From an uncultured Candidatus Saccharibacteria bacterium (GTDB lineage Bacteria; Patescibacteriota; Minisyncoccia; Phycocordibacterales; CSBR16-119), in the NCBI GenBank assembly GCA_964581035.1, contig CAZOLO010000004.1:1-63818 (forward strand): 63,818 nucleotides of DNA, written 5' to 3'. The first letter of the stretch is position 1; the number at the start of each line of letters is the position of its first letter. Shown one piece after another: positions 41,848 to 44,673 of the stretch. The position numbers and the translations under genes are program-made. A model generated the notes under the pieces. It saw nothing but the letters and a program-made list of their open reading frames with translations. It was not told the DNA's origin and did not search any database.

Positions 41848-44673
41848 ATGAGTGAATATAACCCAAAAGATATCGAGAAAAAATGGCAAGAGTCTTGGGA
41901 AAAAGACGGCTTAAATAAGGTTGAAAACAAGGTAGAGGGAAAGGAAAACTACTATAACCTTGTTGAATTTTCATATCCATCGGGGAATCTTCATGTGGGT
42001 CACTGGTACGCATTTGCCGTTCCAGATATTTTTTCTAGATATAAAAGAATGAATGGGTTCAATGTTCTATATCCTATGGGATTTGATGCCTTTGGTTTGC
42101 CAGCAGAGAACGCAGCAATAAAGCTTGGGGCAGACCCAAAGACCTGGACTTACAAACAAATGGATGTAATGCGAGATCAGCTCCGAAGTATGGGAGCTAG
42201 CTTTGATTGGGATAGAGAGGTTGTTTCTTGTGATTCAGAATATTACAAATGGACACAATGGATGTTTAATCAGTTTTTGAAAAATGATTTAGTTTATCGT
42301 GATACAACATTTGTGAACTGGTGTCCAAAAGATCAGACAGTTCTTGCAAATGAGCAGGTTGTAGATGGTTGCTGTGAGAGATGTGGTTCTCAAGTAGAAC
42401 AAAAAAACCAAAAGCAATGGATGATTCGAATTACAAAATACGCCGACAGACTTATTGATGATCTAGACGCGCTTGATTGGCCCAATCAGATCAAGGCTTC
42501 ACAGAAGGCTTGGATAGGAAGAAGTGAGGGGTCTGAGATTACTTTTGAATTAAGTACAGGAGATAAAATGCCAGTATTTACTACTCGAGCAGACACACTT
42601 TTTGGTGTGACATACGTTGTACTAGCACCAGAACATGAGTTAGTTCAATCAATGAAAGACAAGATCGAAAATTGGGACGATGTTGAAAGTTATATTAAAG
42701 ATACTCAAAAAAAGTCAGAACTTGACCGACAACAATCAAAAGAAAAAACGGGGGTTGAGTTAAAAGGAATAAAAGCTACAAACCCTGCAAATGGAGAACA
42801 GGTTCCTGTTTGGATTTCAGACTATGTCCTTGCTGGGTATGGAACCGGAGCTGTGATGGCAGTGCCAGCTCATGATGAGAGAGATTTTGAGTTTGCACAG
42901 AAGTTTGGGTTGGAAATTAAGAACGTTGTAGAGCCAATTACAGTTAGCACTCATGGAGACAGTGCTATTATCCCAGGAGAACCTTTTATCCATAGAGATA
43001 ATGTGGCTATTGTTTTAAAAAACCCAAACACTGGGAAGTACTTATGTACAAACTGGAGAGATCACCACATGCATGGTGTTGTTACTGGCGGAATAGATGA
43101 GGGTGAGGATATTATTGAGTGTGCGATAAGAGAAGTTAAAGAAGAAACAGGATATAGAAATGTAAAATTTTCACACAACCCAAACTTTGCGGTTCAGGCT
43201 AAGTTTTTCCATAGACTAAAAAAGCTAAATAGATGGGCAAGATACCAGATAATTTGCCTTGAGTTAGAGAATGAGGAACGCGGTGAAATCGAAGAACATG
43301 AAGATGTTCATGAATTGGTTTGGATGGAACCTAAAGAAATGGAGGGTTACGCAACTGTTGCTGAAGCTGTGTATGCTGCGAAAATTGCCGCTAATCCAGA
43401 GTATGTTTTTACAGAACATGGTGTTCTTATAAACTCAGGGGAATTTGATGGAATGTTAACAGAAGAAGCTCGGACAAAAATCACCGAAAAGGTTGGGGGA
43501 GAATTGAAGAAAACATATCGACTCCGAGATTGGGGTATTTCTCGTCAGAGATATTGGGGATGTCCTATTCCAATTGTTTACGATCCAGAAGGAAAAGCTC
43601 ACCCTGTGCCAGATGAGCACTTACCATGGACACTTCCAGAAGATGTAGATCATACACCGGACGGAACAGCTCCACTTGCAAGAAGTGAAGACTTAAAGAA
43701 AAGGACAATTGAAATATTTGGAGAAGGGTGGACTCCAGAAGTGGAAACTATGGATACTTTTGTTGATTCTACGTGGTACTTCTATAGGTATTTAGATAAT
43801 AAAAATAATAAAGAATTTTCTGCAAAAGAAATGATGGATTCTTGGATGCCTATTGATTTATATATGGGTGGGGCCGAGCACACAACTATGCATGTACTGT
43901 ATTCTCGATTCTGGACAAAAGCACTTTTCGATCTAGGGCTTGTAAAGGATGAGGAGGCTTTCAAGATTCGCCTAAATAGAGGTCTAATTCTTGGTCCGGA
44001 CGGAAATAAGATGTCTAAATCAAAAGGAAATGTTATCAACCCAGATGAAATAGTAGAAAGACTTGGCGCGGATACTGTTAGGCTATATCTATGCTTCATG
44101 GGGCCATATGGTGTAACTGTAAACTACCCTTGGGATCCAAATGGAGTTGTGGGAGTTCGAAGATTCCTTGAGCGTGTATGGAGGGTAAAAGATATAGTTG
44201 GTGTAGGTAATCAAGAAGACGAAACTCTTCTTCATCAAACAATAGAAGGTGTAACAAAAGATATTGAAAACTTCAAATTCAATACAGCTATTTCAAAGAT
44301 GATGATTCTTGTAAATGCTTGGGAGAAAAGCAAGACTGTTTCAAAAGAAGGTTATAAGGATCTTCTTAAACTTCTGGCGCCATTTGCGCCACATATGACA
44401 GAGGAAATCTGGCGATCAGAATTGGATGAGAAAGAATCAATTCACACATCAAGTTGGCCAAATTTTGATCCAGAAAAAATAAAGATTGATGCCGTGGAGT
44501 TGGTTATTCAGATAAATGGAAAAGTTCGGGCTAAAATATCAGGTAGCATCGGAATGTCAGAAGAAGAGGTTATGGATATAGTAAGGTCAGATGAGTCTAT
44601 TAATAAATGGTTAACAGGGGATCCAAAGAAGGTAATCCACATCAAGGATAAGCTACTAAATATAGTAGTCTGA
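41848..44673 (+). CDS. leuS: Leucine-tRNA ligase carrying an inserted Nudix domain
   Basis: HIGH-type NLHVGH; KMSKS as KMSKSKGN. Editing-domain motifs [19 protein letters not shown] and [37 protein letters not shown]. Confidence 0.95.
   Translation: [941 protein letters not shown]
42931..43410 (+). other. Nudix hydrolase domain (~155 aa) embedded in LeuRS between the editing domain and the [11 protein letters not shown] segment
   Basis: Complete Nudix box [23 protein letters not shown] (nt ~43087-43155), flanked by beta-strand-like segments ([29 protein letters not shown]). Confidence 0.8.

Follow-up and report, generated by a model that had tools for sequence, protein, structure and literature searches.

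Few known enzymes are as conserved as the aminoacyl-tRNA synthetases, and the CP1 editing domain of leucyl-tRNA synthetase (LeuRS) is both a textbook proofreading module and a drug target. Here we describe a LeuRS gene, leuS, with a predicted second enzyme nested inside that domain, in an uncultured Candidatus Saccharibacteria bacterium of the candidate phyla radiation (CPR, or Patescibacteria). The DNA analysed, referred to below as the window, comprises positions 1 to 63,818 of contig CAZOLO010000004.1 (assembly GCA_964581035.1). A single continuous open reading frame (ORF) at 41848–44673, on the forward strand like all features of the gene given below, encodes a bacterial-type LeuRS of 941 amino acids (aa). 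Its residues 363–517 (42934–43398), in a loop of the CP1 editing domain that we call site A, are assigned to a complete Nudix hydrolase domain by the gap in the alignment to Thermus thermophilus LeuRS (between residues 363 and 374), a match to PF00293, an AlphaFold2 (AF2) model and Foldseek.

The synthetase and its nested domain

The host protein passes the equivalog threshold of the NCBIfam model TIGR00396 leuS_bact (922 bits against a cut-off of 548.4), matches T. thermophilus LeuRS (1h3n) at E = 3e-204 and contains the Pfam domains tRNA-synt_1, LeuRS editing domain (PF13603), Anticodon_1 and NUDIX (PF00293). In the class I catalytic core, motif scans placed the HIGH signature, as HVGH, at aa 49–52 (41992–42003), with H49, G51 and H52 invariant in 70 aligned relatives, and the KMSKS loop at aa 721–725 (44008–44022). 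The N-terminal part of the editing domain (aa ~221–362; 42508–42933), in which profile positions 2–145 of PF13603 match aa 221–366, contains the TTRADT editing motif (aa 245–250; 42580–42597) and the AHD motif with the editing Asp (aa 341–343; 42868–42876); T245, T246, R247, T250, H342 and D343 are invariant columns of the same alignment. Beyond the insert, the C-terminal part of the domain (aa 518 to ~556; 43399–43515) corresponds to Thermus residue 374 onward, includes further invariant columns and leads back into the catalytic core, and an anticodon-binding-type helical domain (PF08264, E = 6e-24) follows at aa 794–898 (44227–44541). Because the synthetic and editing motifs are all intact, with HVGH, TTRADT, AHD and KMSKS present in the window protein and invariant across the 70 relatives, we predict that the gene encodes a working LeuRS.

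A preliminary description of this locus had called the enzyme otherwise canonical. This holds for HVGH, the editing domain and KMSKS but not for the leucine-specific domain that precedes KMSKS: the alignment to 1h3n contains no counterpart of Thermus residues 582–638, and the stretch between HxxYxRF and KMSKS is only 39 residues long, as it is in the other CPR LeuRS examined. As this domain varies among bacteria, its absence does not bar the protein from LeuRS membership. With the LeuRS of T. thermophilus (1h3n, 2byt) and Escherichia coli (4aq7), the window enzyme shares the class Ia core with HIGH and KMSKS, a Zn-type insertion, the Thr-rich motif and catalytic Asp of CP1, and the C-terminal domain. 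It differs from them in the missing leucine-specific domain and in the 155-aa Nudix domain that occupies an editing-domain loop.

Residues 1–362 align with Thermus residues 1–363, and residues 518–719 with Thermus residues 374–582, so that ~155 aa (363–517) stand where the Thermus loop has ~10, in agreement with the length first estimated for the extra segment. The insertion point lies 20 residues past the editing Asp, and every solved LeuRS in the PDB comparison lacks an insert at site A. Within the whole protein, PF00293 matches aa 382–498 at E = 7.9e-14 (52.2 bits against a gathering threshold of 21.1); the segment 42931–43410 alone matches at E = 7.7e-15 (55.5 bits). The Nudix box (aa 414–436; 43087–43155) fits the pattern GX5EX7REUXEEXGU exactly and is the sole one in a six-frame translation of the 64-kb window. 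Homology with E53, E56 and E57 of MutT points to E429, E432 and E433 as the residues for metal binding and catalysis, and in the AF2 model the box lies on a loop–helix with the helix at 422–434. The X-loop residues F453-F454-H455 (43204–43212) follow 17–19 aa past the box, within a motif, F[YF]HxxKxxNR, that a motif scan also recovered in free-standing relatives of the domain.

When the whole protein was modelled by AF2 from an alignment of 70 sequences, the mean predicted local distance difference test score (pLDDT) was 87 and the predicted template modelling score (pTM) was 0.75; the insert scored 85–95 and adopted the Nudix strand–helix layout, and the insert modelled alone reached a pLDDT of 95 and a pTM of 0.88. 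Foldseek searches of the PDB with the insert model returned Nudix hydrolases only, with a probability of 1.00 for more than 400 Nudix chains, and the best superposition was with the diadenosine tetraphosphate (Ap4A) hydrolase of Aquifex aeolicus (3i7u; template modelling score 0.78, root-mean-square deviation 2.5 Å). On these models, the insert is a complete Nudix fold nested in the LeuRS editing domain, and its residues make it apparently active. The central claims of the preliminary description, a complete Nudix domain inserted in frame and a perfect box with intact catalytic glutamates, are therefore borne out by the continuous ORF, the PF00293 match, the AF2 fold and the exact fit of the box.

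We also considered the possibility that a mis-assembly or frameshift had fused leuS to a separate Nudix gene. The exact 941-aa protein is encoded on 9 contigs of independent NCBI, ENA and JGI assemblies from different samples, which excludes mis-assembly; LeuRS resumes in the same frame on either side of the insert, the ORF is uninterrupted, dozens of relatives share the architecture, and AF2 folds host and guest domains with confidence. Nothing was found in favour of this explanation, to which we give negligible weight, and the preliminary description was right that the insert is not a neighbouring gene. An intein or a transposon was likewise considered and rejected. Inteins and homing endonucleases resemble the insert in lying in frame at conserved sites of essential genes and in being patchy among close relatives, but Pfam revealed no Hint or splicing motifs and no homing endonuclease in the window insert, which is instead a predicted folded enzyme with conserved catalytic residues, presumably kept in the mature protein. 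Its borders carry no terminal repeats or target-site duplication, only short repeats at chance level, and GC content is flat across it and matches the leuS flanks. The unremarkable GC content and the lack of flanking repeats fit exchange among relatives rather than transposition.

Distribution and turnover of the inserted cassettes

All of the relatives compared here derive from metagenome assemblies, and they are cited by label where one is needed. In a full-length search, most of the best 120 LeuRS relatives (55–72% identical, ~935–975 aa) contained PF00293; those that did were labelled Paceibacterota, Nomurabacteria, Pacebacteria or Patescibacteria. With an E-value limit of 1e-30, an exhaustive HMMER search with a query spanning both junctions (aa 330–548) returned at least 70 cluster representatives (clusters at 50% identity), and with a limit of 1e-10 it returned 288; most of its top 150 matches aligned end to end in one stretch. 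Among species-representative genomes, in which taxon counts are lower bounds, a Nudix domain at the same site occurs in Parcubacteria, many Saccharibacteria, Magasanikiibacteriota, Kaiserbacteria, Pacebacteria and Jacksonbacteria. The LeuRS of two carriers with the labels Bdellovibrionales and Gammaproteobacteria is of the CPR type, and both were probably mis-binned. The insertion is essentially restricted to CPR/Patescibacteria, which answers a question that the preliminary description had raised, and it is not the singular feature presented there, as most of the best 120 relatives carry it. The idea of a fusion unique to the window was suggested by a word-index search with the insert only, which returned free-standing Nudix proteins alone (156–180 aa, 35–40% identity); this was an artefact of sensitivity, overturned by the full-length and exhaustive searches.

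We found no description of a LeuRS–Nudix fusion in the open-access literature, and a survey of the Nudix clan contains no such fusion and mentions no tRNA synthetase (PMC5389931). The sequences were already public but under-annotated. The nesting of the domain in the editing domain and the exchange of cassettes between strains in an essential gene are unusual, and the behaviour of site A as a port for cassettes is a new observation. NCBI names the Nudix-bearing LeuRS (for example, P0021, P0030, P0034 and P0041) merely 'class I tRNA ligase family protein', whereas relatives without an insert are named 'leucine--tRNA ligase'. Because of this naming, LeuRS may look missing in CPR annotations and automated surveys.

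Of 79 inserts at site A, 62 have the strict Nudix box, which indicates purifying selection on the catalytic residues; the other 17 deviate. A Saccharibacteria sub-lineage and its relatives (L014, L015, L017, L020, L023 and L029) have kept a Nudix at site A with a degenerate box, GGIExGQTPEEAALAEIxEEAAL, in which the first Glu is replaced by Gln, the Arg by Ala or Met, and the Gly by Ala. These replacements suggest that catalysis was lost in those lineages and the fold kept.

Site A (between aa 362 and 518 of the window protein) exists in three states among the 120 relatives: a Nudix domain of ~155 aa, a short loop of 0–40 aa, or unrelated modules of ~90–140 aa. At least four unrelated non-Nudix modules of 90–140 aa occupy it (in P0025/P0070/P0108, in P0057/P0091/P0124, in P0122 and in P0110), and searches of Pfam, PADLOC and PHROGs gave no match to any of them. 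A second loop, site B, was mapped from the relatives onto aa ~235–242 of the window protein (ELSTGDKM; 42550–42573), just before TTRADT. It is empty in the window, and in relatives (P0010, P0014, P0015, P0022, P0027, P0055, P0105, P0119, P0129 and P0130) it holds a second or third Nudix, an alpha/beta- or Ser-hydrolase, an ASCH domain, a DUF559/Vsr-like nuclease or a Ham1/ITPase domain. Up to three Nudix copies occur in one protein, and P0105 (1376 aa) has in addition a HAD domain directly after NSGEFDG. The Nudix domain of the window represents one of the states found at a polymorphic hot spot of insertion.

Similarity of the cassette is decoupled from similarity of its host. Across 67 proteins, core identity and insert identity are uncorrelated (Spearman rho 0.003). 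The core closest to that of the window (P0012, 85%) has no insert but a loop of 8 aa; the next closest (P0011, P0013 and P0010, 82–84%) carry Nudix domains only 20–29% identical to that of the window; and the closest inserts, those of P0014 and P0015 (60%), reside in cores at 73–74%. Measured by one identical method, the Nudix domains at site A of the nearest relatives resemble the window insert less than do free-standing Nudix proteins (33–35%) and the Nudix at site B of P0010 (35%).

Pairs of near-identical cores that differ in their cassettes make the same point more directly. At site A, P0019 and P0063 (core 97%) have a Nudix and a 29-aa loop, respectively; P0033 and P0057 (core 97%, with the first 350 aa identical) have a Nudix and an unrelated 113-aa module; and P0069 and P0125 (core 96%) have a Nudix and nothing. 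The P0033 and P0057 loci are syntenic. At least 2 kb of DNA leading up to the cassette are 100% identical between them, the ~580 bp of the cassette cannot be aligned, and the sequence downstream is ~96% identical and mosaic. This pattern is characteristic of a recombination breakpoint at the cassette, and each of the two variants was assembled in at least two samples. The P0069 and P0125 loci are 95.6% identical on either flank, with 628 bp against 94 bp between. A single ancient insertion followed by vertical descent was rejected on these grounds.

Substrate class and function

Free-standing, uncharacterized Nudix proteins of 156–180 aa (P0001–P0008) align end to end with the insert at 33–40% identity and share with it the extra-box motifs PFVxR and F[YF]HxxKxxNR and a conserved Trp. 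End-to-end alignment and shared motifs together define a distinct Nudix subfamily, of which P0001–P0008, encoded as separate genes in unrelated contexts, are probably the donors or else escaped members. Their genomic context is uninformative.

The fold is established on the model, yet the fold search does not single out a substrate. The best sequence match in the PDB, a weak one, is lupin Ap4A hydrolase (1f3y; E = 1e-4 with the single sequence, 1e-11 with a profile). The Foldseek matches are mixed, with NTP pyrophosphatases among them, and include Enterococcus faecalis 2azw, a putative CTP pyrophosphatase, NudI, NudB, RppH and ADP-ribose (ADPR) pyrophosphatases, as well as Ap4A/Ap6A hydrolases of human, Caenorhabditis elegans, Chlamydia and Thermus. 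The enzymes that the insert most resembles are compact, single-domain Nudix pyrophosphohydrolases of nucleoside triphosphates (NTPs) and diadenosine polyphosphates (ApnA), among them 3i7u, 1f3y, human NUDT2 (4ijx), T. thermophilus Ndx1 (1vc8), 2azw, NudI, NudB and RppH, with which it shares its fold, a complete box and an aromatic X-loop residue. It differs from these enzymes in being only 14–22% identical to them, in having its own PFVxR and F[YF]HxxKxxNR motifs, and in its place within the domain of another enzyme. The insert scored far below every cut-off of the NCBIfam equivalogs (RppH, NudB, NudE, NudI and others), with 23–27 bits for the RppH models against cut-offs of 116–118. Identity with RppH, NudB, NudE, NudI, MutT, an ADPR pyrophosphatase or an NADH pyrophosphatase was rejected on these scores and because the X-loop markers of ADPR and NADH enzymes are absent.

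The X-loop, ~17 aa past the box, helps to set specificity: Tyr is associated with ApnA hydrolases (from Dunn 1999, as summarised in PMC5389931), Pro, ~16 aa past the box, with ADP-ribose diphosphatases, and SQPWPFPQS with NADH diphosphatases (PMC5389931). In the insert family, 65 of 67 members have an aromatic residue at +16 to +19, and at position +18, Tyr (28 of the 67) is more frequent than Phe (18); in the window, F453-F454 stand at +17/+18. Pro at +14 to +20 is absent from the window insert and rare in the family, and SQPWPFPQS is absent. The conserved basic residues near the pocket (Arg, His, Lys and Arg) would suit a polyphosphate chain. With low confidence, these features point to ApnA or (non-canonical) NTPs as the likeliest substrate class. 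The suggestion of Ap4A-type substrates made in the preliminary description is compatible with the weak nearest matches (the 1f3y profile and the Ap4A/Ap6A hydrolases found by Foldseek) and with the aromatic X-loop. Aminoacyl-adenylates, which were put forward there as exactly the compounds that Nudix enzymes cleave, do not fit. Nudix enzymes cleave the pyrophosphate bond of nucleoside diphosphate-X compounds, whereas aminoacyl-adenylates are acyl-phosphate anhydrides of a nucleoside monophosphate; leucyl-adenylate (Leu-AMP) is thus not a Nudix-type substrate, as it has no pyrophosphate bond to cleave.

We hypothesize that the window protein is bifunctional: a functional LeuRS that would carry, on a permissive surface loop of CP1, a self-contained and catalytically competent Nudix pyrophosphohydrolase able to act independently of leucylation. 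The Nudix would cleave a polyphosphate-linked nucleotide (ApnA or a non-canonical NTP) in a Mg2+-dependent manner, as a nucleotide 'house-cleaning' enzyme; Nudix, Ham1 and HAD are classic house-cleaning families. Sites A and B of CPR LeuRS would be permissive ports for a set of accessory enzyme cassettes (several Nudix subtypes, Ham1/ITPase, HAD, ASCH, alpha/beta-hydrolase, a DUF559 nuclease and modules without a family match). Homologous recombination in the near-invariant leuS sequence on either side would allow these cassettes to be swapped, lost or replaced. The synthetase, being essential, non-losable and constitutively expressed, would serve mainly as a carrier, an arrangement that could be useful to genome-reduced epibionts that scavenge nucleotides. 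We assign this reading a probability of roughly 55%.

Several observations weigh against it. The lack of correlation between core and insert identity is weak evidence taken alone, because core identities, mostly 70–75%, have a star-like distribution, and the weight of the argument lies with the close pairs; chimeras of strains can occur in metagenome assemblies. The window X-loop has Phe and not the Tyr that marks ApnA hydrolases, and the substrate call draws on 14–22% identity to solved structures and on NCBIfam scores below cut-off. The persistence of the domain at site A across several CPR classes could reflect a benefit linked to LeuRS, and the sub-lineage of Saccharibacteria with the degenerate box hints at a non-catalytic role in some lineages.

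A function coupled to LeuRS was the speculation of the preliminary description, in which the Nudix could clear Ap4A or mis-activated adenylates or serve as a regulatory sensor. In the form considered here, it would clear Ap4A, Ap3A or other by-products of LeuRS, or sense a nucleotide and modulate aminoacylation or editing. The physical fusion to an adenylate-making enzyme, the recurrence of the same host protein and loop across several CPR classes, the Ap4A hydrolase as nearest solved sequence relative, the Ap4A/Ap6A hydrolases among the top fold matches and an aromatic X-loop as in ApnA hydrolases (PMC5389931) all speak for it, and clearance of Ap4A is possible. A built-in role is weakened, however, because cores 96–97% identical have a Nudix, an unrelated module or nothing at site A and because a Saccharibacteria sub-lineage keeps a degenerate box. 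Nudix subtypes are moreover interchangeable at site A, and so, at neighbouring sites, are unrelated enzymes such as Ham1, HAD, ASCH and alpha/beta-hydrolase; Leu-AMP lacks the bond that a Nudix would cleave. LeuRS is not known to be among the strong producers of Ap4A. We consider such coupling unlikely. Should the domain instead have no catalytic function and act as a structural spacer, bind protein or RNA through its surface, or sense a ligand, it would resemble the non-enzymatic Nudix domains already known (PMC5389931). Some Saccharibacteria do keep the domain with a degenerate box (GGIEAGQTPEEAALAEIREEAAL), and 17 of the 79 inserts depart from the strict box, but the window and 62 of the 79 retain the box with all its catalytic positions, and the basic and aromatic residues specific to the subfamily are conserved around the pocket, so that for the window protein this is very improbable.

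The turnover itself could also be read as conflict, with the cassettes as defence, counter-defence or addictive modules anchored in an essential gene, for example to destroy nucleotide toxins or signals of host or phage, and with an arms race or homing behind their exchange. Consistent with this, the site is polymorphic and mosaic through recombination between near-identical genomes, Nudix copy number reaches three, several modules belong to no known family, and the modules, a DUF559/Vsr-like nuclease among them, are of great diversity. Set against it are a GC content that matches the host gene, the absence from the insert of intein or Hint motifs, mobility genes, terminal repeats and target-site duplications, and a Nudix, Ham1 and HAD repertoire that is the classic house-cleaning set. 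PADLOC gave only noise (best PDC-S07, E = 0.0027, 15 bits, with no stretch passing alone) and PHROGs only generic Nudix matches, and membership in a defence system was rejected. We regard a conflict origin as quite unlikely. A bolder reading, which we offer tentatively and consider less likely than not, is that the two editing-domain loops would be recombinational 'docking ports' through which populations of these ultra-small bacteria trade interchangeable accessory enzymes. The invariant leuS sequence on either side would supply the homology arms, and the essential gene would guarantee expression and retention. In its boldest form, the modules would shield translation or the nucleotide pool from nucleotide toxins or signals of host or phage, or their target would be the 5′ end of the bound tRNA.

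Other synthetases also combine an extra enzyme module with the synthetase in one polypeptide, as in IleRS with a GNAT domain (NCBIfam NF040702). Editing modules, too, occur appended or in trans (ProRS INS/YbaK and AlaX). Such additions either stand at a terminus or are paralogues related to editing that have become fixed within lineages. In contrast to these, a predicted non-editing hydrolase is here nested within the editing domain, in a slot that is polymorphic and in which unrelated modules are interchangeable. A whole second enzyme inside an editing domain would introduce a new architectural principle among essential housekeeping proteins, the more so because the contents of the slot differ between strains as those of a gene cassette would. 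It would be relevant to the packaging of accessory functions, such as the sanitation of scavenged nucleotide pools, in CPR bacteria, which are genome-reduced and host-dependent, and would offer both a natural test of the tolerance of an editing domain to domain insertion and a family of uncharacterized Nudix enzymes.

Genes around leuS

The order leuS ... murJ ... lepA is common to the window (40133–49073) and to distant Nudix-bearing relatives (L095); because it is kept in these relatives, the neighbourhood of leuS can be called stable, whereas the cassette inside the gene is not. Directly upstream of leuS, a 141-aa ORF (41354–41779, forward strand) is present on all contigs with this leuS allele; it has no Pfam match. 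Further upstream (~33853–37435) lie genes for a TraG/VirD4-like coupling ATPase (725 aa) and a protein with LTD/PKD domains, which suggest a type IV secretion or conjugation-like locus; a gene for an ECF-type sigma factor comes after these two on the opposite strand. In the murJ–lepA interval of L095, a nucleoside 2-deoxyribosyltransferase-like gene (PF15891; 13080–13646 of L095) is present that is absent from L097, a near-identical genome with a different leuS cassette, and this difference is another nucleotide-salvage insertion or deletion in the neighbourhood of leuS.

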